Below the pieces are notes generated by a model that saw only the letters and a list, made by a program, of their open reading frames with translations, had not been told where the DNA came from and searched no databases. 64,000 nucleotides of DNA from Desulfosudaceae bacterium. Its GTDB lineage: Bacteria > Desulfobacterota > Desulfobacteria > Desulfobacterales > Desulfosudaceae. Positions 2,859 through 23,214 of the stretch are shown here, in pieces; position 1 is the stretch's first letter; every line of letters starts with the position of its first letter. The translations under genes were made by a program, and so were the position numbers. Location: positions 384,001 through 448,000 of the forward strand of contig CAXXDV010000003.1 in NCBI GenBank assembly GCA_963674745.2, in the 5' to 3' direction.

Positions 2859-2870
2859 CATTTAAACCCT

Positions 2871-2903
2871 GCCGGGGCATTTTAACAGAATGCCCCGGCT
2901 TTT
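2871..2903 (+). terminator. Intrinsic terminator-like hairpin between the vWA gene and the rhomboid gene
   Basis: gccggggcatt-7nt-aatgccccggc-tttt. Confidence 0.65.
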
Positions 2904-2921
2904 ATACACCGGGATAATCAA

Positions 2922-8998: not shown

Positions 8999-9088
8999 AA
9001 GGCGGCAATACGATGGCCCCGGCCAGGCAGCGTTTAACAGCAACGGTTTTTTAATATAATGCGATTTTATGTCTTGTCGGGCTGGTCA

Positions 9089-11371
9089 TTACTTTAAAGG
9101 CCTGTTTCCGGCTACCTGTCTCAATTTTGCGCTTAAGAGATCCTGATTGATAGGTTTTGAAATATAATCATCCATTCCGGCCGATAGAAAATGTTCCCGG
9201 TCACCTTTTATCGCATGGGCGGTCAGGGCGATGATGGGGATCCGTTCTTCAGAAGGTGACCGGGCTTCTATCTTTCGTATTTCCCGGGTTGCTGAAAAAC
9301 CATCCATGACCGGCATCTGTCCGTCCATCAGGATAAGATCAAAGCGGTTGCGCCGGTATCGGTCAACGGCCTCCCGGCCATTTCCCACCACCGTCACCAG
9401 GTGACCCATTTTCTCCAGTATTACCTGGATAACCCGTCGATTTAGGGCGTTGTCTTCGGCTACCAGGATTTGCATGAGGGACGAACCGGTATCGGTTTCC
9501 CTGACGGTTTCATGCGCCTGCCCGTTTCCGTCAAAAAGAGGTGTTTCTTGATCGGTCGGGGAAACATTCACGTCAACAGGATCGTCAGAAACGTCCTGGT
9601 TAAGCGCGCGGGACAAGACGTCTTTGAGCATTTTTTTCTTTATTGGTCGGGTTAGACAGTATGCACCCGGCATATTTTTTTTTATGGCTTCCAGAATGTC
9701 TGAAGAATCAGGAACCAGGACGATAGAGGGGGCGGAGGTGATGTCTTGCGAGATCAGTAGCGGCTCAACAGCCTGTATATCGTTAAGGCCCGATCTGATC
9801 AGGATGACGTCAAAAGTTGTTCTGTCCGGGGACTTGTCGTTCAGGCGTTTTTGAGCCGATGGTATATCGCGTGCAATTTCCAGCGAACACCCCCAGTCAC
9901 GTAAATACGTTTCCAGTATTTTCGTGGTAATGGTCTCTTCGCCAATCAGCAGCGTTGAAATACCGTTGAACAGGTTTTCATCTTCCGTATAACCGGTCGG
10001 CCGGTTTTCTGTCGTTGCCAGGTTATATGGCAAAGAAAAAGAGAAATCGGAACCTTTACCGGGTTGGCTGCTGACCAGGATGGTGTCGCCCCCCATTAAC
10101 AGAACCAGCTGGTTGGAAATGGCCAGACCCAGTCCGGTACCGCCATAAAGGCGCGTTGTGGAAGCATCGGCCTGGGTAAACGGTTCAAATAACAGTGGAA
10201 GCTGTTTTTTTTCAATACCGATACCGGTATCTGAAACAAGAAATTCAAGGCAGACGTCGTCATCTTTGCGGTATTTTACTTTGACGTAGACGGCCACCTC
10301 ACCGGTTTGGGTATATTTAATGGCGTTGTTGATCAGATTGGAAATCACCTGATGCAAACGCTCCGGGTCGCCGTTGAGATGGTCGGGCACCTCTTTGGGA
10401 ACCAGGCAACCAAAATCCAGCCCCTTCCGGTAAGCCGAAAAGGAAAACATATCCGAAAGTTTTTTCATGCGTTCCCGGAGGCTGAAGGGAATGTTTTCTA
10501 CATCATATTTTCCGGCCTCAATTTTTGAGAAATCAAGTATATCACCGATCAATGATCCCAGAACCGTCGCGCTCTGCTTGATACTGGCCGTATACTCCCG
10601 TTGTTCCTCTGTCTGCCCGGTCATTTCCAGGAGGTCTGCCAGTCCAATAATACCGCTTAACGGAGTTCGCAGTTCGTGGCTCATATTGGCCAGAAAGCTG
10701 CTTTTGGCTTTATTGGCGGCTTCGGCTTTTTCCTTTTCGATCTGTAAGGAAAACAGCAGATCATTGTTTTCAAAGGTCAGTTGAATAGTGGCGGCCAGGG
10801 TACGACTCATGCGGCGGGCGGTGAAGGTGATGACCAGGCCGAATAGTATGATCATCATGCCCATGGTGACGTGCATGGTGCCGCCGGTGACAAAAAACAT
10901 TGTTGTCAAAGGTACCAGTGCGGGAACCACAAAAAGATAATAGGTCTCCATTCGAATATAATAGGTGGTCATTCCCCCGGCTGCCATACCGGCGATAACA
11001 AAGGCCAGAAAAACCTGATACGTAATTGAGTCGGAAAAGAGGAGGACGCCGGCAGCCCCCCAGGCCACGCCGCCGGCAGAGACGCCGGCCATCATCAGGT
11101 GGAACCAGAATTTCGTATTCTCTATCTGCTGGGGAGCTCTGCGGTAGGTGAAACAGGCGGTATAACGCAGGGTGGTGACCAGTAGTATCATGGCATACCA
11201 GCCGAAAAGGACGGTATGGGATATGTTTTGCCAAAACAGGGCGACCAGAATAGTGCTATTGATGATCGTGCTGAGCATACTGAAAGGCAGGTGGCTGTAG
11301 AGCTGTTTTGTCTGTTCGCCAAGTGTGCGCCGGGCGGCCCTGCTGGGATTTTCTTTTGGGGAAGCAACCAT
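9089..11371 (-). CDS. Membrane hybrid sensor histidine kinase/response regulator
   Basis: Multiple TMs; [13 protein letters not shown]-box; GGTGLGL; C-terminal receiver ([13 protein letters not shown]); degenerate internal receiver. Confidence 0.92.
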
Positions 11372-11497
11372 GATTTTCCCGGAGTTAAGGGGATAAAAAC
11401 AGTAGATGAATAACTATTTGTTTTAATACATTATATATAAATAGTTATAATATAAAAATGTATATCGTGTCAATGTTTTTAAAAAGGCTGAAAATTA

Positions 11498-11527
11498 TTG
11501 ACATTTAATGCCTATTTTAATAATACT
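11498..11527 (+). promoter_or_regulatory. Probable sigma-70 promoter of the TonB operon
   Basis: Perfect TTGACA at 11498; AT-rich -10-like taatact about 17-18 nt downstream. Confidence 0.45.
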
Positions 11528-11540
11528 TAAATAATTTAAA

Positions 11541-11706
11541 GATCATCAAGAAGGTGATCGCGGTTAACAGATTATAACCAACTGAAAAGCAAACAAGTCC
11601 CGCCGGTATCGTCTTGAACCGGTGGGCGAAATATTAAATAGCACGAAAAAATAAAGCCATGAAGGTGATCAGGCTGAATGCCTGTTTTACTTTCGTGGCT
11701 TTTTTT
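11541..11706 (+). promoter_or_regulatory. Structured 5' leader ending in an intrinsic terminator (attenuator/riboswitch candidate)
   Basis: Hairpins gatcatc/ggtgatc, ggtta/taacc, cccgccggt/accggtggg; 16-bp stem 11653-68 with 11687-702 plus T7, just before the ATG at 11717. Confidence 0.6.
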
Positions 11707-11716
11707 ATTGGAAGAG

Positions 11717-13111
11717 ATGAAAAAATATTCAATCGCTATTTATGCTGTGATTCTTTTTTACTGCCTGTCTGCCTCAGCCGCCGATCGGCAAATAGCCGAA
11801 GACACCAACAACGATGGCCGGACAGACCGAATCATTTTTTATGACCGCGCCGGCAAAATCGAACACCTGGAGATGGATACCGATCATGACGGTGCCATGG
11901 ACCGCTTTCAATATTACGAAAAGGAAGCCCTTGTACGAATGGAAAGAGACACGGATGCCGACGGGCATTCCGACTGTCTGGATTATTTCAAAGACGGCAA
12001 AAGAGCCCGTCAGGAGCGTCTTGACAAGGAGAACCGGGTATACCAGGTGACGTTGTTTGATGAGAAGGAACAGCCCGCAGAAATTAGAAAAGACACAACC
12101 GGCAGCGGTGTTTTTGATGCGGTTTATTATTTTAACGACGGTGAAATCAACGCCGCAACACGTGACACGGACGAGAACAGTGTCGTTAATATTCATGAAA
12201 CATTTTCAGACAACCTGCCGGTAAAACGGACGGTAGATGATAACGAAGACGGCCGCCCGGAGCAGATTACGCTGTATGATGACCAGGGGCTGGTTCGGGA
12301 GAGCCGCCAGGACACTTCCCATTGCGGTTTTCTAGACAGGCGCACGGTTTTTAAAAAGGGCAAAATGCGTCTCCAGACAATGGACAACAACCAGGACGGT
12401 AAGGCCGACGACACGCTTTTGTTTAATGATCGGGAAGAACGCCTGCGGATGGAGAGCGACACCGACTTTGACGGAACCATCGATACCCGGCAGTTTTTTA
12501 AGGGCAATCGGATTGTCCGCATGGAAAAAGATGATAACCATGACGGCCGGGTGAACCTGAAGGTTTATTACAACAACCGGGAGGAGAAAGAAAAACTGAT
12601 CAAGGACGCCGATGGTGACGGCTTTTTTGAAATTACCCAGTGGTATGACATCCCGGAATGGCCCCTGGTGATCGAGGTCGACAAGGACCAGGATCAGAAG
12701 CCCGAGGCCCGTTTCTGCTATATCGACGGCGTGCTTCGGGAAAAATCCCTGGATGAGGACCATGACGGCACCATCGATCTGATGGAATTTTTCGATCGGG
12801 ACGGGCGGCTGATCAAAAGCCGGGAAGACGAAATGGGTACCGGTGTATTGACCCTGACCTGGTTTTATGACGATGCGGAACAGGCTGTTCGGGCGGAAAA
12901 AGACACCAATGCCGACGGTCTGCCTGATGTCCGGTTTTTTTATGAGGCAGGCCGGGTGACGTCTGTAGAGGAAGACAGCAACCATGACGGTAAGCCCGAC
13001 GTCTGGGAAACCTATGACAATGCCGAAGCCCTGATCAAACGGGAAAAAGACCTGGACTATGACGGTCAGCCCGATGTCACGGAGACGGCAAAAGAAGAAA
13101 AGAAAAATTAA
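11717..13111 (+). CDS. Exported acidic repeat protein with ~18 tandem Dx[DN]xDG-type units
   Basis: Signal peptide MKKY..ASA; ~24-aa period, e.g. DTNNDG, DTDHDG, DTDADG, DADGDG, DLDYDG. Confidence 0.8.
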   Translation: MKKYSIAIYAVILFYCLSASAADRQIAEDTNNDGRTDRIIFYDRAGKIEHLEMDTDHDGAMDRFQYYEKEALVRMERDTDADGHSDCLDYFKDGKRARQERLDKENRVYQVTLFDEKEQPAEIRKDTTGSGVFDAVYYFNDGEINAATRDTDENSVVNIHETFSDNLPVKRTVDDNEDGRPEQITLYDDQGLVRESRQDTSHCGFLDRRTVFKKGKMRLQTMDNNQDGKADDTLLFNDREERLRMESDTDFDGTIDTRQFFKGNRIVRMEKDDNHDGRVNLKVYYNNREEKEKLIKDADGDGFFEITQWYDIPEWPLVIEVDKDQDQKPEARFCYIDGVLREKSLDEDHDGTIDLMEFFDRDGRLIKSREDEMGTGVLTLTWFYDDAEQAVRAEKDTNADGLPDVRFFYEAGRVTSVEEDSNHDGKPDVWETYDNAEALIKREKDLDYDGQPDVTETAKEEKKN

Positions 13112-13126
13112 AAAGGGACAAGAACA

Positions 13127-13732
13127 ATGTTTGATTTTTTAGCCAAAGGTGGGGTGCTGGTCATCCCCATTCTGCTCTGCTCGGTATTTACCGTGGCGAT
13201 TTTTTTGGAACGCGTCATCACCTTCGCCCGTATGCGTACCCGGGGTGCGGGTCTGGCCGAAAAAATAGCCGGTCTTTTGCTCAAAGGCGAAAAAGAGGCG
13301 GCCCAGAAAACAGCCCGGGAAAGCGATTCCCCCATGGGCCGAATACTGGCCCAAGCCATTGAAGTCAAGGACAGTGACCGTGAATTGCTGGAAACCGTTA
13401 TGGTCAACGCCACGGACGAGGAAGTGAGAAACCTGTCCACCTACGTACAGACCCTGGCCACCATCGGCAACATTGCTCCTTTGCTGGGGCTGCTGGGTAC
13501 GGTCATCGGCATGATCAAGGCCTTTATGGTCATCCAGCAGATGGGCGGTAAGGTCAATGCGGCTGTGCTGGCCGGCGGTATCTGGGAGGCTATGCTGACC
13601 ACGGCCCTGGGCCTGGCCGTGGCCCTGCCCACCATGATCGCCCACAGCTATCTGGTAGCCCGCATCGACAGTTATGAAGCGCGACTGCAGAACGGGTCGG
13701 TCACTTTCATGAAAGCCATTACCCGGAAATAG
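13127..13732 (+). CDS. exbB: MotA/TolQ/ExbB proton channel
   Basis: APLLGLLGTVIGMI, GIWEAMLTTALGL. Confidence 0.9.
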   Translation: MFDFLAKGGVLVIPILLCSVFTVAIFLERVITFARMRTRGAGLAEKIAGLLLKGEKEAAQKTARESDSPMGRILAQAIEVKDSDRELLETVMVNATDEEVRNLSTYVQTLATIGNIAPLLGLLGTVIGMIKAFMVIQQMGGKVNAAVLAGGIWEAMLTTALGLAVALPTMIAHSYLVARIDSYEARLQNGSVTFMKAITRK

Positions 13733-13741
13733 GAGGCAGAT

Positions 13742-14149
13742 ATGCTGGTTCATCGGAAAAAAAGACCGCGTTATGCCATCCAGGCACCGCTGACCTCATT
13801 GATCGATATCGTTTTCATGCTGCTGATCTATTTTTTGCTGACCACCAACTTTATGGTGGACGAAGGCATCAAGATAAAATTGCCGCAGGCCCGGGCGTCG
13901 GCGCCGCAGACGCAACAGGAAATAACCGTCTATGTGGACAGGGAGGGGCGGGCTTATATTAACAACAAGCCGGTCCCGGAAGAGATCCTGTTTACCAGAA
14001 TCAAGGAAATGATCGGCGGCCAATCCGACCGGCTGGTGGTGGTCAAGGCCGACCGGGAAGTTGTGTTGAACAAAGCCGTCAAGGTCATGGACCTGGCCAA
14101 GGCCGCCGGCGCCGGCCGGCTCTGCCTGGCCACGGAGAAGGATTTGTAA
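13742..14149 (+). CDS. exbD: Biopolymer transport protein ExbD
   Basis: LTSLIDIVFMLLIYFLLT, VVVKAD. Confidence 0.9.
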   Translation: MLVHRKKRPRYAIQAPLTSLIDIVFMLLIYFLLTTNFMVDEGIKIKLPQARASAPQTQQEITVYVDREGRAYINNKPVPEEILFTRIKEMIGGQSDRLVVVKADREVVLNKAVKVMDLAKAAGAGRLCLATEKDL

Positions 14150-14152
14150 TCC

Positions 14153-14803
14153 GTGTCTGAATACAAGAAAAAGCCCAATCATCTGATGCGGGGCATGATT
14201 ACCGTGTCCCTGGCCCTGCATGTGTTGATATTCCTGCATATCGCCGGTATCTACCGGTCCAGTGCGCTGACCTATATCGAACTGACACTGAACGATATAT
14301 CCAAACCATCGGCACGCGCCATTCCCAGGCCACGGAAACGGCACCAGGCCCCCAAAGCGGAGACGGTCAGCCGGCCGGAAGTGTCTCGGGACCCCATACC
14401 CGTGTCGAACATGGCGCCCGCGAACCAACGATTTTCCAAGTCTCTTATGGCCGACATCAGCGCGCCGTCGGTACCTGTTAGCGGTTGGAACATGAACGGC
14501 GCGCCGGTGTTCGCCACCAGCGCCGATTATTTCGACATGGTACGCATGAAGATTGAAAGTCGCAAGCAATACCCGGAATCCGCCCGGGACAAACAGATCC
14601 AGGGCCGCGTCCGGGTCGGGTTTGTCATTACGCCCGACGGGCAGATATCCTCCCTTGAGATCGTTAAAAGTTCACGGCATGGCATCCTGGACCGGGCCGC
14701 TCTGGAAGCGGTCAGAAATGCCGCTCCTCTTCCCCGACCGCCGGCAAATCTGTTTAAGGAAAAACTGCTGGTGGAAATAACCATATTATTTGAACTGATG
14801 TGA
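14153..14803 (+). CDS. tonB: Energy transducer TonB
   Basis: SLALH TM motif; YPESAR..IQGRV; SSRHGILDRAAL. Confidence 0.88.
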   Translation: MSEYKKKPNHLMRGMITVSLALHVLIFLHIAGIYRSSALTYIELTLNDISKPSARAIPRPRKRHQAPKAETVSRPEVSRDPIPVSNMAPANQRFSKSLMADISAPSVPVSGWNMNGAPVFATSADYFDMVRMKIESRKQYPESARDKQIQGRVRVGFVITPDGQISSLEIVKSSRHGILDRAALEAVRNAAPLPRPPANLFKEKLLVEITILFELM

Positions 14804-14826
14804 CAACTAAACGGAAGGAGAAATAA

Positions 14827-16905
14827 ATGATAAAAAACGTATTCAAAAAACTGTACTGTTGTAAAAAAGCATGTCTGATGTTTTTATTCGTGCCGGCTCT
14901 TTTTTTGGGGATTTTACCCTCAGCCGGGGCCGCTGACGATACGTCCAGTCCCACGGTTTATAAACTGGATAATATCGTTGTATCCACCACCCGCAACGAA
15001 ATACCGGTCAGTGACGCGGCGCAGACTGTCACGGTTCTGTCTAAAGAAGATATCATGGCCTCACCGTTTGACCGGGTAGAAGACATTATCCGCAGCGTTC
15101 CCGGCGTTTACAATACCCGGCATTTCGGCACCCAGACCAGCGGTGTCTCCAATCCCATCACCGTCCGCGGCGTCGGCGGCAACCGGGTCCTGTTGCTGGT
15201 GGACGGTGTCCCCCAGAACGACAATTTTAACAACTCCATCGCCTGGGTGGCCTGGGGTCATATCCCCAAGGAGGCCATCGAACGGATTGAAATCGTCCGC
15301 GGTCCTTCTTCGGCCATGTACGGTTCGGAAGGCATCGGCGGTGTGGTCCATATCATTACCAAAACGCCGGACACGGTCCGCAATACTTCCGTCCGGGCCG
15401 AAGCCGGTACGTCCGACACGTATGCCGGATACGGTTTTCACAGCCAGACAATGGATAATCTCGGCCTGCTGATCGCCGGCGGATATGAAGAATCGGACGG
15501 TTTTTACATGACGGAAGACCCTGAAAGCTACGAGATCAAACGGCATCGGGAGGTCGGTAAAGTTTTCGGGAAAGTGCGCTATGAGCTGGATGATACCGCC
15601 AGTCTCGAAATTTCAACCTTGTATTATGACCATGAAACCGGTAAGGGGCGGAAATATTTTTATGATGAACTCCAGCTCAACCATTACACCGTGAATTATA
15701 CCCGGCAGGCCGACACCGGTCTGGGGATCAAGGGCCTGATGTATTACAACCGGGCGGATAAGTTCGCTTACCAGGACAGTTCCAAAGACAACTTCGCTTC
15801 TCTGCTTCGCAAGGAAGATTCGCCTTCTTCAACCTGGGGCGCGGACCTGCAGGGTATTGTGCCGATCAGCGATCGTGCGGATTTGACGCTGGGGGCGGCG
15901 TTTAAGAAAACCGCCTGGGATTATGACGACAAATTCGTCAACAACCCCCGTGATGAAGGGGCGGAAGGCACCCAGCAGTATCTGGCGCCTTTTGTCAACC
16001 TGAACATGAAATTTTTGGCCGATGACCGGCTGGTGGTCGACCTGGGTGCCCGGTATGACTGGATCAAAACCAGTGACGGGGCCAACTGGGATGATGATCC
16101 GGATGCAGGGGCACCCTACAGTAACGAATACGGATCCGAGAATGAGAGCAGTTTTTCACCAAAAATCGGCGTCGCCTTCCATCCGGACGCCAAAACCACT
16201 TTGCGGGCGTCAGTCGGCAAAGGCTTCCGGGCGCCCAGTCTGTTTGAACTTTACAAGGTCCATGTGCGCCAGGGCGGGCGGTCATACCGGCACGCCAACC
16301 CGAATCTGGAACCGGAAGAAATCTGGGCTTACGATATCGGTGTGGAACGGATGCTGTTGGACAGGCTGCGGGGCAGCCTGACATTTTATCAGTCTTTTGC
16401 GGATGATTATATCGGCACCCGGCTGATCAACAGCTATGAAAAAAACGGCAAAACGTTTAATGAGTATATCCTGGACAACATCAGCCAAGTGGAAATGCAT
16501 GGCGTCGAGGCGGAATTGAACTGGTATCCGCGAACCGACCTGGCATTTTTCGGCAATTACACCTGGAATGTGTCTGAAATCGAAAAAAACGAGGCGGATC
16601 CGTTTGAAGAGGGCAAATACCTGACCAATGACCCCAAACATAAAATCCATGTCGGCGCGACCTACAGCAATCCTGATCTTGTCAACGTCACGCTGCTTTG
16701 GAACCGTTATATCGACAAGTACTATGATATTGACGAACTGACCCAGGGAAAGGACAGTTTCTGGAGCGTTGACCTTCAACTTTCCCGCCGTTTTTTGGAT
16801 CGTCTGACCGCCTACGTGAGCGCGGAAAATATTTTTGACAGCGTGGACAATGAAGCTATCGCTCCCGGTGCCATTTATAAGGGCGGCGTGAAACTTGAAT
16901 TTTAA
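14827..16905 (+). CDS. TonB-dependent outer-membrane receptor
   Basis: TonB-box-like DNIVVS; plug VLLLVDG and IERIEIVRGPSSAMYG; terminal F. Confidence 0.92.
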   Translation: MIKNVFKKLYCCKKACLMFLFVPALFLGILPSAGAADDTSSPTVYKLDNIVVSTTRNEIPVSDAAQTVTVLSKEDIMASPFDRVEDIIRSVPGVYNTRHFGTQTSGVSNPITVRGVGGNRVLLLVDGVPQNDNFNNSIAWVAWGHIPKEAIERIEIVRGPSSAMYGSEGIGGVVHIITKTPDTVRNTSVRAEAGTSDTYAGYGFHSQTMDNLGLLIAGGYEESDGFYMTEDPESYEIKRHREVGKVFGKVRYELDDTASLEISTLYYDHETGKGRKYFYDELQLNHYTVNYTRQADTGLGIKGLMYYNRADKFAYQDSSKDNFASLLRKEDSPSSTWGADLQGIVPISDRADLTLGAAFKKTAWDYDDKFVNNPRDEGAEGTQQYLAPFVNLNMKFLADDRLVVDLGARYDWIKTSDGANWDDDPDAGAPYSNEYGSENESSFSPKIGVAFHPDAKTTLRASVGKGFRAPSLFELYKVHVRQGGRSYRHANPNLEPEEIWAYDIGVERMLLDRLRGSLTFYQSFADDYIGTRLINSYEKNGKTFNEYILDNISQVEMHGVEAELNWYPRTDLAFFGNYTWNVSEIEKNEADPFEEGKYLTNDPKHKIHVGATYSNPDLVNVTLLWNRYIDKYYDIDELTQGKDSFWSVDLQLSRRFLDRLTAYVSAENIFDSVDNEAIAPGAIYKGGVKLEF

Positions 16906-16930
16906 AAATATAAAAAAGGAATTTTTGATC

Positions 16931-17638
16931 ATGAAAAAAAGTGTGCTATGGATAATGACCATACTGTTGTTAACCACCCCGGCTTCCGCTCATTATCTGT
17001 GGGTTTCCGTTCAAGACGGTCACTATGCTGTCAATCGCGGTATACTCTCAAAGCCTCAGGAAGCCTATGATCCCTCTTGTGTCAAAACCATCAAAGCTTA
17101 TGGCCGGGATGGAATGACCATACCTGTTCAGGCCGTTGCCGAACCTGAACAAATGATTTTTAAAGCGGATCGGCCGGCAGCTATGGCGGTTGTCGTCAGT
17201 GACTGGGGATATCGTGTTAATACCACATCCGGAAAGAAATTTATGACCCGGCAACAGGCCGAGGAAAAAGGGTTGAATGTTATCAGCGCTTTTTTTTCAA
17301 GGCAGTTTTCAAAAACGATTTTTACTTTTTCAGCCGAGCAGCTTAATCCCGCAGGTCTGACGTTTGAAATTGTTCCCCTGGCTGATCCGACCGCTGCCAA
17401 GCCGGGTTCTTCGATTCCGTTCAAGCTGCTTTATCAGGGCCAGCCCCTGGAGAAGATTACCATTTATACCCATGACCGGCAAAAGATCGATACCAATGAA
17501 CAAGGCGAATTTCAGGTGCCCGTTCAACAGTCCGGATTCCACTCTTTTTATGCCAGATATAAAATCCCTGAAAAAAACAATCCTGAAATGGATTACCTGC
17601 AGTTAATGACATTCATGACCTTTACAACAAAGCAATAA
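16931..17638 (+). CDS. DUF4198-like periplasmic protein associated with Ni/Co uptake
   Basis: Signal peptide ASA/HYLW with N-terminal His; FEIVPLADP, LLYQGQPL, TNEQGEF. Confidence 0.75.
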   Translation: MKKSVLWIMTILLLTTPASAHYLWVSVQDGHYAVNRGILSKPQEAYDPSCVKTIKAYGRDGMTIPVQAVAEPEQMIFKADRPAAMAVVVSDWGYRVNTTSGKKFMTRQQAEEKGLNVISAFFSRQFSKTIFTFSAEQLNPAGLTFEIVPLADPTAAKPGSSIPFKLLYQGQPLEKITIYTHDRQKIDTNEQGEFQVPVQQSGFHSFYARYKIPEKNNPEMDYLQLMTFMTFTTKQ

Positions 17639-17760
17639 ACCTCATCCGCCTTATTCGTGTCAAAAAAATGACAGGACATGGACACGGATTAACACGGAGA
17701 ATATAAACAGCCTTCTTGAGAAAAAAATGATATTTTAAGGCTCAGCAGGGGAAGACACAT

Positions 17761-18216
17761 ATGATGCGATTGTTTTTATGGATAACGGTTATAATGCTGA
17801 CGGCGGTCTCGCCGGACCTTTCTTTTGCCCATGGTATGGTTCATCATTTTACGCAGGAAGAGGCCGTGGTTATTCGGGCGGCCTATGACGACGGCGAACC
17901 CATGAGTTATGCCGCGGTAAAAATTTATGCCCCGGACAACGCGAAGATCGAGCACCAGAACGGCCGCACCGATAAAAACGGCTGTTTCGCCTTTATCCCG
18001 GATGCCCCCGGCCAATGGCATCTGACGATTGACGGCGGCATGGGGCATATGATCACCACCGACGTGACGGTTGATGAAGACCTTGCCCTGCCAGCCGAGC
18101 CGTCCGAAGTGTCCCACCAACTGCCCCGATTTTATGGCATGGCCATGGGGTTGAGTATTATTTTCGGGCTGACCGGCTTTCTGGCCTGGTTCAAAAGCCT
18201 CAAGCAATCACCATAA
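17761..18216 (+). CDS. Ni/Co transport accessory protein (NikL/CbiL-like) with C-terminal membrane anchor
   Basis: SFA/HG; YDDGEPM..V.IYAP; GRTDKNG.FAF.PD..G.W; GMGH; C-terminal TM. Confidence 0.65.
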   Translation: MMRLFLWITVIMLTAVSPDLSFAHGMVHHFTQEEAVVIRAAYDDGEPMSYAAVKIYAPDNAKIEHQNGRTDKNGCFAFIPDAPGQWHLTIDGGMGHMITTDVTVDEDLALPAEPSEVSHQLPRFYGMAMGLSIIFGLTGFLAWFKSLKQSP

Positions 18217-18227
18217 CCGGTGTCCGG

Positions 18228-19055
18228 TTATTGAACGATATTGACCTTGAACTTAACGCGGTCGTTAAAACTCCGGGCATCGTTGACCGGGTTCCGGATG
18301 ATGATCTCACCCATCTTCACCCCGGGTGTCGTCCATGTCATATAGGTATAGTAAGGGAAGAATTTGCCGGGGGAAATTGGCGGTATCTGCACGGTCAGCG
18401 GCCATTGCTCCGGAAAGTTCAAGTCCATGGAGCAGGCGGGGCTGATGGCGCATCCATAATTATATACATCCAGGCCGATGAAAATTTTATCGTTGACGCC
18501 GCCATTGATAAATTTTTCCTGACAGATGCTGGGATTTTTGCAGAATCCCACATCCGGGCGGTTTTGGACGCCAATGCTGTAAGTGGCGGTATTATTGTTT
18601 TCATTGGACTCATCAACCTGGTGATGCGCGTCCAGGGTGACGGTATACGAGACCGCCAGACACCGATCAACCGACACGCCGAGTTCTCCTGAAAAGGTCA
18701 GGCTCTGGTTCGGACCGGGCACATCTAAATAATCACTTCTTCCGGTTTGGGGGGTTTCATTGAATCCGACCAGCATTTTACTCACTGTTGAAGGGCCACC
18801 GTTGTTTCTGATCACCAGTTGATAGGAACAGGTGGCACCGTTTTGAACTGTAGCCGGTTCCAGCTTGAATGTCTGGACCATAAGATCGGGTTTGGCGGGT
18901 GTGGCCGGCGTTACGGCGCCCGGAGGCCTGTTTTTGATTACAGAAGGTGTAACTTGTCTGGATGGCGCCGGCTTCAGTCTGACGTCCGCGCCATCGGCCT
19001 GGAATAAAAAAACCATTGATAAAATTAGGCTGAGAATAATCGGTCTCACGTTCAC
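18228..19055 (-). CDS. Secreted CARDB (Ig-like) domain protein
   Basis: Signal peptide; KPDLMV..IRNNG..LDAHHQVDESNENNN; second degenerate CARDB. Confidence 0.75.
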   Translation of the reverse strand: MNVRPIILSLILSMVFLFQADGADVRLKPAPSRQVTPSVIKNRPPGAVTPATPAKPDLMVQTFKLEPATVQNGATCSYQLVIRNNGGPSTVSKMLVGFNETPQTGRSDYLDVPGPNQSLTFSGELGVSVDRCLAVSYTVTLDAHHQVDESNENNNTATYSIGVQNRPDVGFCKNPSICQEKFINGGVNDKIFIGLDVYNYGCAISPACSMDLNFPEQWPLTVQIPPISPGKFFPYYTYMTWTTPGVKMGEIIIRNPVNDARSFNDRVKFKVNIVQ

Positions 19056-19147
19056 CCCCCTGAGATATACGGTTATTGTTTTCTCAACCTACCACCAAAT
19101 CTGAAAAAGGTGCAAACGCTTTTATTTGTCTGACTTCAGAGGCACTT

Positions 19148-20878
19148 TTATTTTTCGAACAGCGACAGGTAATTGTTGTAAAGCGCAGGATGTACACGGG
19201 AATAGGCGTCAAAGTCGCCGAGCAGTTCCATGCCGGGTATGATCGCCCGTACGACCGGCAGGCCGATATCTTTCCGGGTCAGGTCAACATAACAGGGCTG
19301 ATAGTGGTTTTTAATGAGCAGGGTTTCCAGCAGGACAAGGTCGGATGCATGATCATTGGTGGAATAGTCGGGCAGGTTTTCGTAACCCACCATGACCAGT
19401 TCCGTTGACGCCGGTCGAGTGGGCGGCGGGTTGGGAAAAGGGCAGGTCGTTTCGGTAATGGCTGAAATAATGGCACGCCGGGCATCCAGGTGAGCCGCAG
19501 TACCGGTGTGTATGATACCGGATTGTTCAACAACAAAACAGCGGCAGCAGGGAACGCCCATAGCCGGCGTAATATCCTGAAACCAGAGATCAATACCGGC
19601 CCGGCCGTAAGCCTCAAGAAGGGCTTCGATTCGGGCATCATGGGCCACCAGCCGGAAGCAGGTCGACAGGTCGTAGGGCACCGTGGCCGCCTGGTGCCGC
19701 TCAATAACTTCCAGCAGTGCGGCAACCCTGGCCTGGGCCGGGGTATTGCCTGATGCCAGGCCGGTAGATCCCAGTCCGGAAAACAGGGACGGTTCATCCA
19801 GGTTGCAGAACAGAAAGAGGCACTGGGCTGGAACCCATATCGGCCGGGTGTTTTCGTTCCGGTCGTGTGGATCGGGCGTTACACCCTCAACCCAGTGCAG
19901 GGTCTGATCACGGTAAGCAACTTCCAAAGACAGGCTGGAGGGATCGATGGCATTACCAACCCGTATTTCGTTGAACGTTGCCCGGCGCAACGGGTAGTCG
20001 TTCTGATAATCCGCCAGGCCGTCGTCCGATACCGCGGCAAAGGCCGAACAGCGCTCTACGATTTCCATCATCAATGAGGCCCGGGCCGCGTCCAGGGACA
20101 GCCCTCTGCCGTAACTGGTCTGTTCCCCTGAAAGGGAAAACCGGTTTCGCCGGTGATCAACCCGGCGGGCAAATTGCCATGATCGCAGAAGGCCGATGGG
20201 ACTTAAACTGGCTTCATGCCGCATGAGTTGCCCCAGTTCCACGCCGGCCTTTTCCAGCCGTTGGGCGGCGGTTGCTGCCGTCTGATCCGGGGATGGCGTC
20301 CTGGGTGGCGAGGTGCTGTTTTGACGGGTCGATACGGCCAGTTCGGATAAGGTCGCCGTCTGCCTGGTCGGTTGATTCTCAATAGTCAGTGGCGGCAGAC
20401 CCGTCTCTTCGGGGGGTATCAACGGCTTGTGTTCCTGCAGGTTGGTTCTGAAAAAAGTCGTCCATTGCCGATGAAGGGACTGATCCGGTTCCAGAAACGA
20501 ACGCAGATAAATCAACGGGGTGTGGCGGCTTATTTCGTCAATTGTTTCCGGCGAAAACTGTCCGGCCAGAGCGTCTCTTCCCTTTGTCAGCAGCAGGTGC
20601 TCGGCAACCAGGGCCCGGTAGACAGGGTTTTCTGCTTCACTGCTTTGGTTTAATAGCTGCTGCAGGGCATCGGTGGATAGTGAAGTAATACGCGTCAAAA
20701 CGTACTGGTGTAAGAAATCATCCATGGGCCGGGATTTTAACAGTGGCAACGCGTCTTCTGTGGACAACGCCTCATCCGGTGTCACGACGAAGAAGCCTGT
20801 TTGGTGGCGGGTTGTTTCCCGTGTTAATGTATAAGCCAGTTTTTTATTTTTCAAAAAGACCTCGTCTATTCGAATCAC
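19148..20878 (-). CDS. YcaO-like family protein with N-terminal extension
   Basis: SYGRG..AR.S.MMEIVER; STGLASGNT..ALLEVIERH; VVRAIIPGME. Confidence 0.85.
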   Translation of the reverse strand: MIRIDEVFLKNKKLAYTLTRETTRHQTGFFVVTPDEALSTEDALPLLKSRPMDDFLHQYVLTRITSLSTDALQQLLNQSSEAENPVYRALVAEHLLLTKGRDALAGQFSPETIDEISRHTPLIYLRSFLEPDQSLHRQWTTFFRTNLQEHKPLIPPEETGLPPLTIENQPTRQTATLSELAVSTRQNSTSPPRTPSPDQTAATAAQRLEKAGVELGQLMRHEASLSPIGLLRSWQFARRVDHRRNRFSLSGEQTSYGRGLSLDAARASLMMEIVERCSAFAAVSDDGLADYQNDYPLRRATFNEIRVGNAIDPSSLSLEVAYRDQTLHWVEGVTPDPHDRNENTRPIWVPAQCLFLFCNLDEPSLFSGLGSTGLASGNTPAQARVAALLEVIERHQAATVPYDLSTCFRLVAHDARIEALLEAYGRAGIDLWFQDITPAMGVPCCRCFVVEQSGIIHTGTAAHLDARRAIISAITETTCPFPNPPPTRPASTELVMVGYENLPDYSTNDHASDLVLLETLLIKNHYQPCYVDLTRKDIGLPVVRAIIPGMELLGDFDAYSRVHPALYNNYLSLFEK

Positions 20879-20907
20879 AATTCAGGATGACCGGCCCAAA
20901 GAGGTTC

Positions 20908-23214
20908 TTAATTCCGGTATATGTCCGGAGACGGCATTTTTTCTTTCAGAAAGGCCGCGATTTCATCCCCGGTTTCCATTTTCAGGCAGGCCCTCAAAGC
21001 GGTTTGAGCATCTGACTGCCTGACAGCACAGATAAATTGTTTGGCGGCCGGAATGGAAGAGGGAATCATGCTGAGCTGATTCGCTCCCATCCCGATGAAC
21101 AGAAAAATACTTTCCCTGACGGATGCGGCTTCACCGCAGATACAGACCTGTTTGTCGAGTTGCCGGCAGGTGGACATGACCTGTTCCACCGTCGCAATAA
21201 CGGCCGGGTGGAGGGAATTGAAGTGCCGGGCCACTTTTTTGTTGTTCCGGTCCACAGCAAGCAGATATTGCATCAGATCGTTGGTGCCGATATTGACAAA
21301 ATTTACGTAACGCAGCAGGCGGTCCAAAATAGGTACGGCCGCCGGCACTTCGACCATAATACCCAGTTCGATGTCCCGGTCAAACGGTATGCCGTTCCGG
21401 TCCAGATTCCGTTTTTCATCCGCTACCAGTGCCACGACCTGTCGGATCTCTTCAACCTGGGTGATCATGGGGAACAGTAACCGGGTCTTGCCGAGGGCTG
21501 AAGCCCGCAGGATGGCCCGGATCTGGATCCGGAAAATGTCTTCCAGGTCAAGACTTAATCGAATGGCCCGCCACCCCAGAAAAGGGTTGTTTTCTTTGGG
21601 GTAATCCAGGTAGGACAAAAATTTATCACCACCCACGTCAAAGGTCCGGATGGTCAGTTCTCGACCGTCCGCTTTTTCCAGAGCCCGGGTATAAAGGGCG
21701 ACCTGTTCTTCTTCCGAAGGAAAGGTTTTGCGCAGGAGAAACGGGAACTCCGTCCGGTACAGGCCGATATGATCCGCCCCGTATTTCCGGGCCAGGAGCA
21801 GATCTGACAGGAGCCCGATGTTGGCGCCGAGCCTGACCGCAAAACCGTCCTGTGTTTCCGCCGAACGGTCCCGAAGTCCTTCCAGTTGTTTCAGTACGCG
21901 CCTGTGTTCCTCCTGGCGGTGTTCATATTTTTCGCGGATATCCGGGTCAGGATTGACGTAGACGATTCCGGATACCCCATCAACGATCAGAAAATCATTG
22001 GCGCGGACATTGTCGAATACATCCTCCACACCGATAACAATCGGGACCTCCAGGGACTTTGCCATGATAACCGTGTGTGAGGTTCGTCCTCCCCGGGCCA
22101 GCACAACGCCTTTCAGGTGCGGTTGGCGGGTGGCCAGCAGGTCTACCGGAGAAATATCCGAAGCAATGATAATCGTGTCGCGGGTAAACGCCTGGTCCGA
22201 CACTTCGTTGATGCCGACCAGGTTGCCCAGCACCCGGCGGCCGATATCCAGGATATCGGCATAACGTTCGTTCAGATAAGGGTCGTTTATGGCTTTAAAC
22301 AGGGTTACATATTTTAAAACCACCTGCTTTAAAGAGTACTCGGCACTTTCGCCCTGATTGATGAGGGCCACAATTTTTTTGCGCAGGGATTTATCGGCCA
22401 GGAACATGAGGTGCGCGTCGATAATGGCTTTTTCCTGATCCGAGAGGCTCGGGACGTTTTCAACCACCTGTTTTATCTGTCTGGCAGCGGCATCAAAGGC
22501 CTCCTCCAGACGAAGGATTTCTGCGGCCGTGTCGGTAACGGCGGTTGAATGAATATGCTCGAATTCGATGGTTTCCAGCATTAAATGGGCAAATCCGGTA
22601 GCCACCCGGTCGGAAACCGCCTCTCCGCGCAGGTGTTTCTGGTTAAGGGTGGTTTCTTTGATGGCGTTTTTCTTCCCGGTCGGCTTCAGCTTTATTGATT
22701 TGCCGGTTTCCTGCCGCTCCTCCTGAAGCATGGTAAAGGCAATGGTCGCGGCAATCTGACCGGCAATGTTATTCAATAACTGAATGTCCTCATCGGCGAT
22801 ACCTTCCTCAGCCCGGGTCTGGACAACCAGTGCACCGAGAACCTTTTTATGGTAGATCAGCGGTATCCCCAGATAGGTGTTGTAAACCTCTTCACCACTG
22901 CCGCCGTAATACTTGTACCGGGGGTGAGCGGCGGGGTTTTTGATGAAAACCGGGGCCATGGTTTCAATCACCAGACCGGTCAGCCCTTCACTTACGTCCA
23001 TTTCGATGGCACCGACCGATTTCTGGCTTAACCCGATCGTGGCTTTTAACATCAACGTGTTGGTGTAAGGATTGTAGGCATATACCGAGCAGGCATCGGT
23101 TTTAAAACGGGCCGCAATCATTCTGACAATTCGGTCCAGGGACTGATCAGGGCTGTCCGAATCGGCGATGGTTTTCAGGATACTTTCCAGAATATGGTGT
23201 CGCGCTTCATTCAT
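20908..23214 (-). CDS. ptsP: GAF-containing PEP-protein phosphotransferase (enzyme I-Ntr type)
   Basis: N-terminal GAF; GGRTSHT phospho-His; GLYRTEF; ENNPFLGWRAIR; GTNDL.QY; ICGE. Confidence 0.92.
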   Translation of the reverse strand: MNEARHHILESILKTIADSDSPDQSLDRIVRMIAARFKTDACSVYAYNPYTNTLMLKATIGLSQKSVGAIEMDVSEGLTGLVIETMAPVFIKNPAAHPRYKYYGGSGEEVYNTYLGIPLIYHKKVLGALVVQTRAEEGIADEDIQLLNNIAGQIAATIAFTMLQEERQETGKSIKLKPTGKKNAIKETTLNQKHLRGEAVSDRVATGFAHLMLETIEFEHIHSTAVTDTAAEILRLEEAFDAAARQIKQVVENVPSLSDQEKAIIDAHLMFLADKSLRKKIVALINQGESAEYSLKQVVLKYVTLFKAINDPYLNERYADILDIGRRVLGNLVGINEVSDQAFTRDTIIIASDISPVDLLATRQPHLKGVVLARGGRTSHTVIMAKSLEVPIVIGVEDVFDNVRANDFLIVDGVSGIVYVNPDPDIREKYEHRQEEHRRVLKQLEGLRDRSAETQDGFAVRLGANIGLLSDLLLARKYGADHIGLYRTEFPFLLRKTFPSEEEQVALYTRALEKADGRELTIRTFDVGGDKFLSYLDYPKENNPFLGWRAIRLSLDLEDIFRIQIRAILRASALGKTRLLFPMITQVEEIRQVVALVADEKRNLDRNGIPFDRDIELGIMVEVPAAVPILDRLLRYVNFVNIGTNDLMQYLLAVDRNNKKVARHFNSLHPAVIATVEQVMSTCRQLDKQVCICGEAASVRESIFLFIGMGANQLSMIPSSIPAAKQFICAVRQSDAQTALRACLKMETGDEIAAFLKEKMPSPDIYRN

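Follow-up and report, generated by a model that had tools for sequence, protein, structure and literature searches.

A beta-hairpin repeat protein linked to ExbB-ExbD-TonB motor genes and headed by a conserved leader RNA in a Desulfosudaceae bacterium

Ton energy-transducing systems combine a MotA/ExbB-type channel, ExbD, a TonB protein with its C-terminal domain, and a receptor with a Plug domain and a 22-strand barrel. Some of these motors have extra parts: according to the available text of PMC6957404, the TonB2 clusters of Vibrio also encode TtpB (a DUF3450 protein, specified by the first gene), TtpC and the TPR protein TtpD, and iron uptake that depends on TonB2 requires ttpB2, the gene at the head of the tonB2 operon. 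Periplasmic metal-binding proteins of the DUF4198 family have been described next to TonB receptors. In the text available for PMC12537917, 79% of DUF4198 members have an N-terminal His, a Kd of 18 nM is reported for Ni, and the neighbours include a TonB receptor and NikR; in that for PMC12663993, the DUF4198 protein Zcp, encoded next to a TonB receptor gene, is proposed to be a periplasmic Zn buffer.

A Ton operon led by a repeat protein

Within the window (the whole 64,000-nucleotide stretch analysed), a tightly spaced run of genes encodes a repeat protein (REP), ExbB, ExbD, TonB, a TBDR, a DUF4198 protein and a NikL-like protein, in that order (Table 1), with gaps of 15, 9, 3, 23, 25 and 122 nt between successive genes. 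All terminator-like sites listed at 11717-18216 lie within coding sequence, and none is listed in the intergenic gaps. The same-strand run and the family assignments made in the first-pass annotation are borne out, and the predicted products correspond to an ExbB-ExbD-TonB transducer with its TBDR. TonB is of a short form that pairs a conserved IPRPRxR motif with the TonB_C domain, and the NCBIfam model nearest to the TBDR is TonB-hemin, with a score under the cut-off. The genome holds about five motor systems, and REP is single-copy.

Table 1. Features of the repeat-protein operon and its leader (positions in the window).
Feature	Position	Strand	Details
Sigma-70-like promoter	11498..11527	+	TTGACA, 18 nt, AATACT; A/T-rich stretch upstream
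Leader hairpin P1	11541..11559	+	7-bp stem, AAGAA loop closed by C-G
Leader 3' element	11652..11712	+	model R1, E 2.9e-12; terminator hairpin + U-run
Repeat protein REP	11717..13111	+	464 aa; signal peptide + 18 hairpin units
ExbB, MotA/TolQ/ExbB proton channel	13127..13732	+	201 aa; PF01618, 113 bits
ExbD	13742..14149	+	135 aa; PF02472, 101 bits
TonB	14153..14803	+	216 aa; TonB_C PF03544, 69 bits
TBDR	14827..16905	+	692 aa; Plug PF07715 94 bits + barrel PF00593 164 bits
DUF4198 periplasmic metal-binding protein (by family)	16931..17638	+	PF10670, 71.4 bits, cut-off 34
NikL-like small protein	17761..18216	+	NF058648, 57.5 bits vs cut-off 100; C-terminal membrane helix

The two distal genes had been read as DUF4198-like and NikL/CbiL-like. 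The first assignment holds, with a predicted DUF4198 product scoring above the family cut-off; identification of the second as the NikL subunit of a Ni/Co ECF transporter does not, the score being below the cut-off and nikMNQO not adjacent. No ECF genes lie 3' of the NikL-like gene, which is followed by a convergent gene for a CARDB protein and then by YcaO. The predicted cleavage sites, read by eye as ASA/HYLW in the DUF4198 protein and SFA/HGMV in the NikL-like protein, make the N-terminal His earlier attributed to both plausible. With a His after cleavage and a TBDR neighbour, the DUF4198 protein resembles Zcp and IsDUF4198 as described in the available text of PMC12663993 and PMC12537917, respectively. 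This part of the operon is thus already known from work published in 2025, which, in the text available, accounts only for the distal part; that text mentions neither the repeat protein nor the leader RNA, which supplementary neighbourhood figures or datasets could show.

Hairpin units and acidic loops of the repeat protein

A script count yielded exactly 18 units in REP, spaced 24 to 25 aa apart, of which 12 match Dx[DN]xDG and six (units 4, 5, 6, 8, 13 and 15) are degenerate, in agreement with the approximate figures given earlier. The description of the protein as exported and very acidic also stands: by eye, the N terminus is a Sec-type signal (MKKYSIAIYAVILFYCLSASA, cleaved before AD), and the mature protein of 442 aa contains 114 D+E versus 66 K+R. 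Inspection by eye revealed no good lipobox and no other anchoring signal (barrel or sorting tag), and the relatives likewise have Sec-type signals lacking a good lipobox.

In a consensus built from 525 units in 47 proteins, D1, D/N3, D/N5 and G6 each reach 100%, D/E9 96% and Y/F14 92%, although units were picked by their loop motif, such that only positions 10 to 24 are free. The loop consists of nine residues (D1, D/N3, D/N5, G6 and D/E9) and offers only oxygen ligands. We take it to be of the integrin/FG-GAP Ca2+ type, with acidic or amide residues at 1, 3, 5 and 9 and Gly at 6, a pattern recognizable in the sequence of 12 of the 18 units. The degenerate positions are partly conserved across the family.

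The AlphaFold model (pLDDT 90.6, pTM 0.69) contains 36 strands, each unit being modelled as a beta-hairpin with an acidic loop, and REP is predicted to be a single-layer beta-ribbon, with its shape and length read from the strand list and the aligned folds. The nearest solved folds are all single-layer sheets (OspA, Z 10.6; CPAP G-box, Z 10.4; MORN1, Z 10.0, with rmsd 5.3 over 199 residues). As in integrin/FG-GAP proteins, a nine-residue acidic loop sits between two strands, but REP does not form a seven-bladed propeller. It shares with YD repeats the [YF]-D-x-x-G hairpin after the loop. Rhs/YD shells are closed spiral beta-shells of many YD repeats, usually around a C-terminal toxin, whereas REP is not such a closed shell, has only 18 hairpins, and carries no toxin, VgrG-linked or other extra domain; Foldseek matches to Rhs/teneurin YD sheets are local only (E ~1e-11, TM ~0.15 [TMq 0.12-0.20], rmsd ~39 A), and REP was not assigned to this group.

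Apart from DUF6802, several named families were likewise set aside. Pfam MORN_2, FG-GAP and RHS models gave no match to the window REP at E<=0.01, and the missing MORN_2 (PF07661) match counts against the YwqK/MORN-variant name that many relatives carry at JGI; one relative (L165) has a sub-threshold MORN_2 match (27.2 bits versus a cut-off of 29.6). A Myxococcota homologue (L022) passes FG-GAP_3 (38 bits) and RHS_repeat (32.8 bits). For DUF6802 (PF20615), a model that spans just a few repeats, REP scores 19 bits, under the cut-off of 27, which is passed by L022 (42.5 bits), L078 (37.3 bits) and many precomputed matches. The NCBIfam Lsa25.6 adhesin model (NF050087) matches four repeat stretches at 53.9 bits (E 1.7e-14), compared with an equivalog cut-off of 150. 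Lanmodulin was the only PDB entry matched by sequence (E 0.055-0.072); EF-hand and lanmodulin loops comprise 12 residues between two helices, whereas those of REP are flanked by strands in the model.

Linkage to the motor and candidate roles

Homologues of REP remain beside exbB-exbD(-tonB) rather than lying mostly away from TonB genes. Among 42 related loci, exbB neighbours REP in 34 (within 1.5 kb in 33), and the other eight comprise three contig ends, four of the weakest matches and one locus without a repeat ORF. In a second sample of 30 loci, chosen without a peptide-pattern pre-filter, 26 have exbB in the 1.5-kb flank; three of the remaining four end within 387 nt, and in the fourth the junction is masked, although ExbB can be read beyond it. 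Counting only contigs long enough to show the neighbour, the tally in this sample is 27 of 27. Little of this would be expected by chance, given 8 MotA/ExbB matches in 5.5 Mb. The linkage that the first-pass annotation put up for testing extends to exbBD and tonB but not to the receptor: a TBDR occurs near REP homologues in just 9 of the 42 loci, DUF4198 in 3 and the NikL-like gene in none. REP thus goes with the motor rather than with Ni/Co cargo genes.

This linkage spans Desulfobacterales, Myxococcota and Binatia-like genomes and varied gene orders, including tonB-REP divergent from exbBD (L022), REP-REP-tonB-exbB-exbD (L032), REP-REP convergent with exbBD (L039) and tonB-REP-exbB-exbD (L012), none with a TBDR in the 4 to 6 kb scanned on each side. 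ExbD is strongly conserved across REP-linked loci, with a mean column identity of 79%. In an ExbB tree (145 columns, quick search), REP-linked rows fall into clades of 16 (SH-aLRT 100), 14 (97) and 3, plus one lone row, and the REP label requires 3 changes compared with 22.1 when labels are shuffled (none of 500 shuffles needed so few). The REP-linked ExbBs form at least three lineages, not one clade; the pairing may be old and since lost in places, or it may have been gained more than once. Four weak relatives (L037, L038, L041 and L043) have ample flanking DNA and no exbB nearby, indicating that the repeat fold is not confined to Ton loci.

Physical contact is only weakly predicted by gene neighbourhood on its own, and no natural fusion of REP with ExbB, ExbD or TonB was found. 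In most Desulfobacterales loci only 4 to 130 nt separate REP from exbB, a spacing that points to a common transcript and to use of REP and the motor in stoichiometric amounts. In the explanation that best covers the whole locus, to which we give about even credence, REP is a periplasmic motor accessory rather than a Ni/Co sponge, in a leader-controlled metal uptake operon. REP would then be an accessory component of a specialized ExbB-ExbD-TonB transducer, here transcribed with one TBDR, a Ni/Zn-type DUF4198 binder and the NikL-like protein. Its hairpins would join in one long ribbon, one edge of which has an acidic loop closing every second turn; Ca2+ is the most likely occupant of these loops and would stiffen the ribbon into a rigid periplasmic strut or a docking surface for periplasmic parts of TonB, ExbD or both. 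Such a role would resemble that of ttpB and ttpD in serving the Vibrio TonB2 motor. Judging from the available text of PMC6957404, REP is like TtpB in being exported or periplasm-facing, belonging to no enzymatic family, standing first in an exbB-exbD-tonB operon, and going with the motor rather than with a particular receptor; it differs in having no sequence or fold relation to DUF3450, which has a leucine zipper where REP has an all-beta ribbon with acidic loops, and in that the operon lacks a TtpC-type long ExbB.

The first-pass annotation had put forward a multi-site metal sponge. In this reading the loops could bind the metal being transported, or some other cation, within the periplasm and pass it along, a role compatible with the acidity and 12 canonical loops of REP, the shared leader that would co-regulate it with Ni/Co-type uptake genes, the metal-buffering precedent of the neighbouring DUF4198 family (PMC12663993, available text) and a weak resemblance of the loops to lanmodulin in a profile comparison (E 0.055). 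We consider this unlikely: the donors are exclusively oxygen, and the 442 residues include just 8 His and 3 Cys; strands, not EF-hand/lanmodulin helices, flank the modelled loops; and REP accompanies exbBD-tonB also at loci that have no TBDR, DUF4198 or NikL gene close by. The 99.96%-complete genome contains no XoxF/MxaF-type PQQ alcohol dehydrogenase and thus presents no obvious lanthanide demand. Integrin-type acidic loops combined with few His and Cys make structural Ca2+ likelier than Ni/Co capture, and the claim of a Ni/Co sponge is not sustained; the scaffold for the TonB motor, offered earlier as an alternative, agrees with the evidence.

It is also improbable that REP is a Ca2+-dependent envelope adhesin or ligand-capture protein, binding peptidoglycan, polysaccharide or an outer-membrane partner and merely co-expressed with the motor, since nearly all clear members of the family, in different phyla and gene arrangements, have exbB adjacent, the REP-exbB gap is short here and in most Desulfobacterales loci, and no anchoring signal was seen. 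This idea likens REP to beta-hairpin repeat proteins such as MORN, YD and the Leptospira adhesin Lsa25.6; it is favoured by the weak relatives away from exbB, by the single-layer sheets of the CPAP G-box and MORN, which are protein- or lipid-binding surfaces, and by the sub-threshold match to Lsa25.6, a protein listed as a fibrinogen binder in the available text of PMC8657130. Highly unlikely, finally, is a Ca2+-sensing regulator in which loop occupancy sets ribbon stiffness and gates TonB/ExbD by the periplasmic cation level. The degenerate third of the loops, at partly conserved positions, could mean graded occupancy, and REP is linked to the motor, but nothing specific favours sensing, a sensory output domain is lacking, and the same data fit the passive structural role of the motor accessory.

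A conserved leader RNA and the genes behind it

The operon is preceded by a leader in which hairpin P1 begins some 5 nt past the predicted start of transcription and the 3' element ends 10 nt upstream of the REP start codon. In 20 other copies of the leader, a TTGACW -35 box precedes P1 by a median of 40.5 nt. P1-type hairpins occur in 28 of 40 copies versus 2.1 +/- 1.4 in shuffles, and their loops (AAGAA in 10, AGAA in 7, ATGAA in 5, and others) share the general form (N)NGAA, 4 to 5 nt long. After a variable, unstructured spacer of 29 to 68 nt (median 38.5), an invariant arm, AAGCC-AsGAA-GG, sits inside the long terminator hairpin and can form a mini-hairpin, P2 (GCC-AsGAA-GGC). The 5' arm is invariant and its partner variable, with compensatory changes at one stem pair (CG 23, GC 11, UG 2). 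Of the order's 301 genomes, 126 carry the pattern, compared with 3 matches in all for a reversed-pattern control. No Rfam 15 family, RF00174 included, matched at the leader in window positions 9000-21000 at E<=1, and none matched in 20 leader loci at E<=0.1; the leader is a previously undescribed conserved RNA matching no Rfam family.

The leader would control the whole operon after initiation, with P1 and P2 carrying the same kind of loop. P2 would compete with the intrinsic terminator, and a factor or ligand stabilizing P2 may bring about read-through. A similar arrangement is described for ANTAR targets in the available text of PMC8934654, where two hexaloops (A1 and G4) are separated by a short constrained linker and the second lies within the 5' arm of the terminator, such that its folding excludes the terminator. 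The leader likewise has two like-looped hairpins, the second in that position, but its loops are of 4 to 5 nt and its spacer is long; since it has only the terminator overlap of the ANTAR definition, it was not classed as an ANTAR target. A single ANTAR gene is present in the genome, an orphan GAF-ANTAR beside unrelated genes.

A ligand-sensing riboswitch for a metal ion or metal chelate, with the hairpins docking around the ligand, is a possible though doubtful substitute for a protein-dependent attenuator. The pair of similarly looped hairpins and the variable spacer recall two-hairpin riboswitches, the regulon forms a coherent set for a single class of nutrient, and no RNA-binding regulator was found nearby, the single ANTAR gene being an orphan; yet the conserved part is tiny, the varying P1 loops are looser than known ligand pockets, and the spacer is unstructured and variable. 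The downstream genes resemble cobalamin riboswitch regulons (btuB/btuFCD/cbiM) in including TBDR, BtuF-like Peripla_BP_2, FecCD and CbiM genes, but neither the window leader nor the 20 loci match RF00174, six canonical cobalamin riboswitches being located elsewhere in the genome.

In the second sample, 17 of the 30 loci carry the leader ahead of REP. The first ORFs of at least 90-100 aa starting within 400-450 nt of the leader, which are crude calls (n = 81), encode TBDR (21), Peripla_BP_2 (10), REP (9), DUF4198 (7), DUF3842 (5), ExbB (3), DUF3450, the TtpB family (3), and FecCD, CbiM, SBP_bac_5 and FmdE (2 each), so that BtuF-like (Peripla_BP_2) and NikA-like (SBP) genes are also headed by this leader. 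Six have no family, and unrelated genes comprise three methyltransferases and one each of an amino-acid permease, a flavin reductase, an MFS/spermine synthase, a corrin methylase (TP_methylase), a Gate-domain protein and an AAA_lid_2 protein. The presence of CbiM, NikA-type SBP and DUF4198 genes in this regulon supports the Ni/Co character earlier proposed for the system. Because its leader is common to other envelope uptake operons, the whole unit would be a regulated system for acquiring a metal or metal chelate, and the metal is probably Ni/Co.

Gene order and partners of the repeat protein

Seven genes on one strand, headed by that of the 464-aa repeat protein (REP), follow one another at intervals of 15, 9, 3, 23, 25, and 122 nt. 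Searches of Pfam and NCBIfam bear out all of the family assignments bar two: the NikL-like protein and REP, which has no family above threshold (19 bits versus 27 for DUF6802 and 53.9 versus 150 for an Lsa25.6 adhesin model). The first-pass annotation described REP accurately, with a script recovering 12 Dx[DN]xDG loops in 18 units of period 24 to 25 aa, and the protein is indeed very acidic (its mature chain has 114 acidic versus 66 basic residues).

Coordinates of the operon, its leader, and other features (window positions unless a locus or contig is named)
Feature	Location	Strand	Remark
VIT-VWA protein, then rhomboid-domain protein	750-3614	+	
Hybrid histidine kinase	9089-11371	-	divergent from operon
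Inverted repeat, 10 nt, perfect	11410-11419 / 11439-11448		
Second promoter-like site	11423-11451		overlapped by inverted repeat
Leader	~11534 to 11712	+	stops 10 nt short of REP start codon
REP gene	11717-13111	+	ORF, first of the seven-gene same-strand run
exbB	13127-13732	+	Pfam/NCBIfam assignment confirmed
exbD	13742-14149	+	Pfam/NCBIfam assignment confirmed
tonB	14153-14803	+	Pfam/NCBIfam assignment confirmed
TonB-dependent receptor (TBDR) gene	14827-16905	+	Pfam/NCBIfam assignment confirmed
DUF4198 gene	16931-17638	+	Pfam/NCBIfam assignment confirmed
NikL-like gene	17761-18216	+	score under curated cutoff
CARDB-domain protein	18228-19055	-	exported
YcaO-domain protein	19148-20878	-	
Second leader copy	G000:C1:102881-102929 (= L074 ~6382-6430)	-	only other strong copy in this genome
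TonB2-like long/short ExbB pair	G000:C1:873371-876704		
Canonical cobalamin riboswitch	C1:876519-876704	-	
HEAT-repeat protein of Desulfatiglans	L012:10879-14325	+	3' of tonB-REP-exbB-exbD

The distal part of the operon is already known biology. DUF4198 proteins are periplasmic metal binders, of which Zcp holds Zn via three histidines (excerpts of PMC12663993); extracts of PMC12537917 give a Kd for Ni of 18 nM for IsDUF4198 via an N-terminal histidine kept in 79% of the family, and name TonB receptors and NikR among the family's neighbors. No ECF (NikMNQO) or ABC importer lies 3' of the NikL-like gene, so the inner-membrane uptake step is not encoded at this site.

Two genes converge on the end of the operon, one for the exported CARDB-domain protein and the other for a YcaO-domain protein of 576 aa. 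The divergent histidine kinase has HisKA, HATPase_c, and C-terminal receiver domains and a multi-pass membrane N terminus, and its neighborhood showed no cognate response regulator. The inverted repeat, which lies in an AT-rich region, may serve as the operator of a metal regulator, for which Zur, Fur, and NikR were considered. The window also encodes a 702-aa VIT-VWA protein, and VWA proteins border the REP-exbBD modules of loci L032 and L039 as well.

Among 42 REP loci found by a peptide pattern in species-representative genomes (sample 1), exbB is present in 34, in 33 of them within 1.5 kb. The eight without it comprise three contig ends (L008, L029, and L036), four loci with ample flanks that are among the weakest matches (L037, L038, L041, and L043), and one from which no repeat ORF could be recovered (L042). 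When a profile search replaced the peptide pattern (sample 2, whose genomes may overlap those of sample 1), exbB occurred within the 1.5-kb flank in 26 of 30 loci; in three of the exceptions the contig stops within 387 nt of REP, and in the fourth the junction is masked, with ExbB, ExbD, and TonB readable beyond it. Where the contig leaves room, exbB therefore stands by REP in 27 of 27 cases; of all 30 loci, 19 show a recognizable TonB. Adjacency to exbB by chance is expected at about 1 to 2% (8 MotA/ExbB matches in this 5.5-Mb genome), and REP homologues are thus not found mostly away from TonB genes. The proposed tie of REP to Ni/Co uptake cargo fared differently: when sample 1 was queried with the window's own proteins, TonB was matched in 14 of the 42 loci, the TBDR in 9, DUF4198 in 3, and the NikL-like protein in none, so that the partner of REP is the motor.

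The association of REP with the motor survives gene rearrangement. A TonB_2-domain gene is followed by a 1,094-aa REP divergent from exbB-exbD in a myxococcote (L022), the order is REP-REP-tonB-exbB-exbD in a Binatia-like genome (L032), two REP genes converge on exbD-exbB in L039, and in Desulfatiglans (L012) tonB-REP-exbB-exbD precedes the gene of a HEAT-repeat protein; a Pfam scan of 4 to 6 kb on either side revealed no TBDR at these four loci. The Desulfatiglans HEAT-repeat protein has 1,148 aa and consists of such repeats almost throughout, and an 802-aa database relative (P0048) combines HEAT/Arm and DUF6802 repeats on a single chain.

The ExbB tree (66 rows) contains every located paralogue of this and five other REP-bearing genomes plus REP-linked copies from elsewhere; one match in genome G002 that had no locus was excluded, five duplicates were removed, and L055 and L056 were labeled REP-linked by hand from their coordinates. 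Sixteen of the REP-linked ExbBs group in a Desulfobacterales clade (SH-aLRT, 100), 14 in a clade of Myxococcota/Binatia type (97), and 3 in another, with a single row standing alone; TolQ-like paralogues and those of long/short ExbB pairs are interspersed among them. Only 3 label changes are needed, versus 22.1 for shuffled labels (0 of 500 shuffles as low). A single dedicated motor lineage was dropped because the REP-linked ExbBs are not monophyletic; the pairing is therefore not one inherited block but recurs across differing motor lineages, which is a classic comparative signature of a probable functional coupling. In the partners, an IPRPRxR segment is invariant in 14 REP-linked TonBs, and the ExbDs of REP-linked loci have a mean column identity of 79%.

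Predicted fold and family of the repeat protein

An AlphaFold2 model of REP, built from an alignment of 21 family members (mean pLDDT, 90.6; pTM, 0.69), has 36 beta-strands and no helices beyond the signal peptide; in each unit, a hairpin leads into a 9-residue loop. Among 525 units from 47 proteins, picked by their loop motif, position 14 is tyrosine or phenylalanine in 92% and is followed by D-x-x-G, a combination that resembles YD repeats. Foldseek gave local matches to the YD-shells of Rhs, teneurin, and Tc proteins (E of about 1e-11, TM of about 0.15, rmsd of about 39 A), and the top matches of an independent aligner were single-layer beta-sheets (OspA variants, Z of 10.6 and 10.4; CPAP G-box, 10.4; MORN1, 10.0; junctophilin, 9.2), each of which spans only about 170 to 270 of the 442 residues. 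We read the model as probably a single long single-layer ribbon with the acidic loops on one edge, and 36 strands at textbook spacing would make its length of the order of 15 nm.

The loop pattern (acidic residues at 1, 3, 5, and 9; glycine at 6; strands on either side) we take to be the integrin/FG-GAP type of Ca2+ site, and a myxococcote homologue passes both Pfam FG-GAP_3 and RHS_repeat. The ligands in the loops are all oxygen, and the 442-residue mature chain holds just 8 histidines and 3 cysteines; Ca2+ would therefore fit these sites much more naturally than Ni or Co. An EF-hand or lanmodulin identity of the loops was ruled out by their flanks, which are not helical in the model; a PDB sequence search returned lanmodulin-type loop matches alone, at E values of 0.055 or weaker. 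A lanthanide role was dropped, as this genome has no XoxF/MxaF-type enzyme.

REP belongs to a modest-sized, uncharacterized family of 79 clusters at 90% identity, with 2,373 representatives at an E value of 1e-3 or below and 81 at 1e-30 or below. Of 201 genomes sampled from the class, 66 carry it, representing 41 of 102 genera, and this genome has one copy. The ESM Atlas contains look-alikes, every one of them a hypothetical protein, in Thermodesulfobacteriota, Binatota, Myxococcota, and Nitrospinota. Many clusters bear the automatic JGI name "YwqK antitoxin," for which Pfam gives no support in the window's REP. A search for longer relatives, as a sign of natural fusion, found none at an E value of 1e-10 or below, which is weak evidence, and an apparent REP-ExbB fusion (an 859-aa open frame at L191:751-3327, minus strand) proved to be an artifact whose junction is a run of X from masked or unknown bases.

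The leader RNA and the genes behind it

When upstream regions were compared, 8 of 15 Desulfobacterales loci, that of the window included, proved to share a conserved element. It consists of a strong TTGACA -35 box; a 5' hairpin (P1) that starts a median of 40.5 nt past this box, or about 5 nt past the predicted transcription start; a spacer rich in A, 29 to 68 nt long with a median of 38.5 nt; and AAGCC-AsGAA-GG within a long hairpin ending in GGC and a U-run. Folding of the window's 179-nt leader (z score, -7.1) yields P1, a pair of lineage-specific hairpins, and a terminator hairpin of 16 bp.

An alignment of 36 copies shows the 5' arm of the terminator to be invariant at G5 C6 C7 and G10 A11 A12 G13 G14, whereas the partner arm is variable, with frequent imperfections, and the 5' arm is therefore constrained in sequence beyond pairing. 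One stem pair shows compensatory change (CG in 23 copies, GC in 11, and UG in 2). The same arm can self-fold into a mini-hairpin (P2; GCC / AsGAA / GGC) with a loop similar to the one in P1. The P1 stem differs in almost every copy around an (N)NGAA loop, and it reaches at least 5 bp in 28 of 40 copies, compared with 2.1 ± 1.4 (maximum, 7) in 200 dinucleotide shuffles.

The exact pattern of the 3' element, which skips this genome's two copies because of a T at a variable position, occurs in 126 of 301 sampled genomes of the order, with about 150 matches listed and 78 more besides; the reversed pattern has 3. A covariance model recovers exactly this genome's two copies (E values of 2.9e-12 and 9.2e-9; next best, 0.02). 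No Rfam 15 family matches the leader in the window or in 20 leader loci, and the six ordinary cobalamin riboswitches of this genome lie elsewhere. One of these canonical riboswitches stands just before the TonB2-like ExbB pair, so the Ton motors of this organism appear to be split among regulons.

A crude rule, which took the first ORF of 90 to 100 aa or longer that starts within 400 to 450 nt, made 81 first downstream ORFs callable from 90 leader matches: TBDR (21), Peripla_BP_2 of the BtuF/FhuD type (10), REP (9), DUF4198 (7), DUF3842 (5), ExbB, DUF3450, and SAM methyltransferases (3 each), FecCD, CbiM, SBP_bac_5 of the NikA/Opp type, and FmdE (2 each), six other families (1 each), and no family (6). 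Thus, 59 of the 81 are genes for TonB machinery or for binding and transport of metals or chelates, and the CbiM, NikA-type, and DUF4198 genes point to Ni/Co as the probable theme. DUF3842 proteins of about 140 to 160 aa recur as the first gene (L144, L146, L148, L150, and L156), as do FmdE-domain proteins in the regulon (L089, L103, and L074).

In sample 2, the leader lies 5' of REP in 17 of 30 loci, and the REP clusters L002 and L005 carry a second copy ahead of a TBDR or DUF4198 gene. Among the matches listed, inspection by eye placed a leader in 28 of 39 REP-positive genomes common to the leader-pattern survey and the REP profile search versus 8 of 20 REP-negative genomes listed by name, a co-occurrence that is only indicative because related genomes are not independent. 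This genome's second copy heads the genes of a 650-aa TBDR and a 498-aa exported IU_nuc_hydro/FmdE (nucleoside-hydrolase-like) protein; a SAM methyltransferase gene stops just 5' of it.

Possible roles of the repeat protein and the leader

A protein or small ligand that stabilizes P2, perhaps together with P1, would keep the terminator from forming. The leader shares the logic of ANTAR antitermination, with two like-looped hairpins, the second inside the terminator arm. ANTAR targets, as portrayed in extracts of PMC8934654, carry A1 and G4 in hexaloops joined by a linker that is short and constrained, unlike the loops of 4 to 5 nt and the spacer of 29 to 68 nt in the leader. Since these defining loop and linker features differ, identity with an ANTAR target was rejected, and only the antitermination logic is proposed. 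The sole ANTAR gene of the genome, an orphan GAF-ANTAR, was likewise set aside as regulator: its neighbors are unrelated (glutamate-synthase-like, HTH/cupin, LD-carboxypeptidase, and beta-lactamase-fold proteins), and it has no link to either leader copy. Literature searches found no DUF4198 riboswitch and no antitermination leader for TonB-dependent genes, and an attenuator-type leader that would define an envelope metal-uptake regulon in the Desulfobacterales appears new as far as literature and Rfam searches reach.

Neither the way in which the ExbB-ExbD-TonB motor spans the periplasm nor its full set of components is settled. To our knowledge, extra Ton motor components are known for the Vibrio TonB2 type only. 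Of the two roles first suggested for REP, that of a scaffold or partner of the motor has strong comparative support, and that of a multisite metal sponge is unsupported. Because REP partners the motor rather than the Ni/Co cargo genes, we favor its being an accessory of the ExbB-ExbD-TonB complex. It may act as a rigid strut stiffened by Ca2+ or, alternatively, as a docking sheet for the TonB linker at its IPRPRxR segment or for ExbD. The closest precedent for such an accessory is the Vibrio TonB2 cluster, in which neither the first gene, ttpB2 (DUF3450), nor the last, ttpD2 (TPR), is dispensable for TonB2-dependent iron transport, according to extracts of PMC6957404. Among the papers listed on ExbB/ExbD/TonB with MORN, titles and abstract openings describe no REP-like component, and searches returned nothing on DUF6802 and nothing joining ExbB with FG-GAP. 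A motor-linked beta-ribbon family therefore seems new as far as these searches reach; the neighborhood figures and data sets of PMC12663993 and PMC12537917 could bear on REP-like genes.

Taken as one joint claim, it is conceivable, if rather unlikely by our own reckoning, that REP is a genuine fourth subunit in a widely distributed class of Ton motor, a Ca2+-stiffened beta-ribbon of roughly periplasmic scale that docks TonB and/or ExbD, and that its operon belongs to the regulon of a new dual-hairpin class of attenuator RNA sensing Ni/Co or a metal chelate, directly or via an RNA-binding protein. Conserved, exported, confidently modeled, and tracking the motor over several phyla and gene orders, REP is a concrete candidate for copurification and cryo-EM. 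Sulfate reducers of the Desulfobacterales are environmentally important and rely heavily on Ni and Co enzymes. Because it has no Rfam family, the leader is a new regulatory RNA open to testing and a means of finding the nutrient that orphan TBDRs import. If the joint claim is true, TonB-dependent transport would gain a new structural component as well as a new riboregulator.
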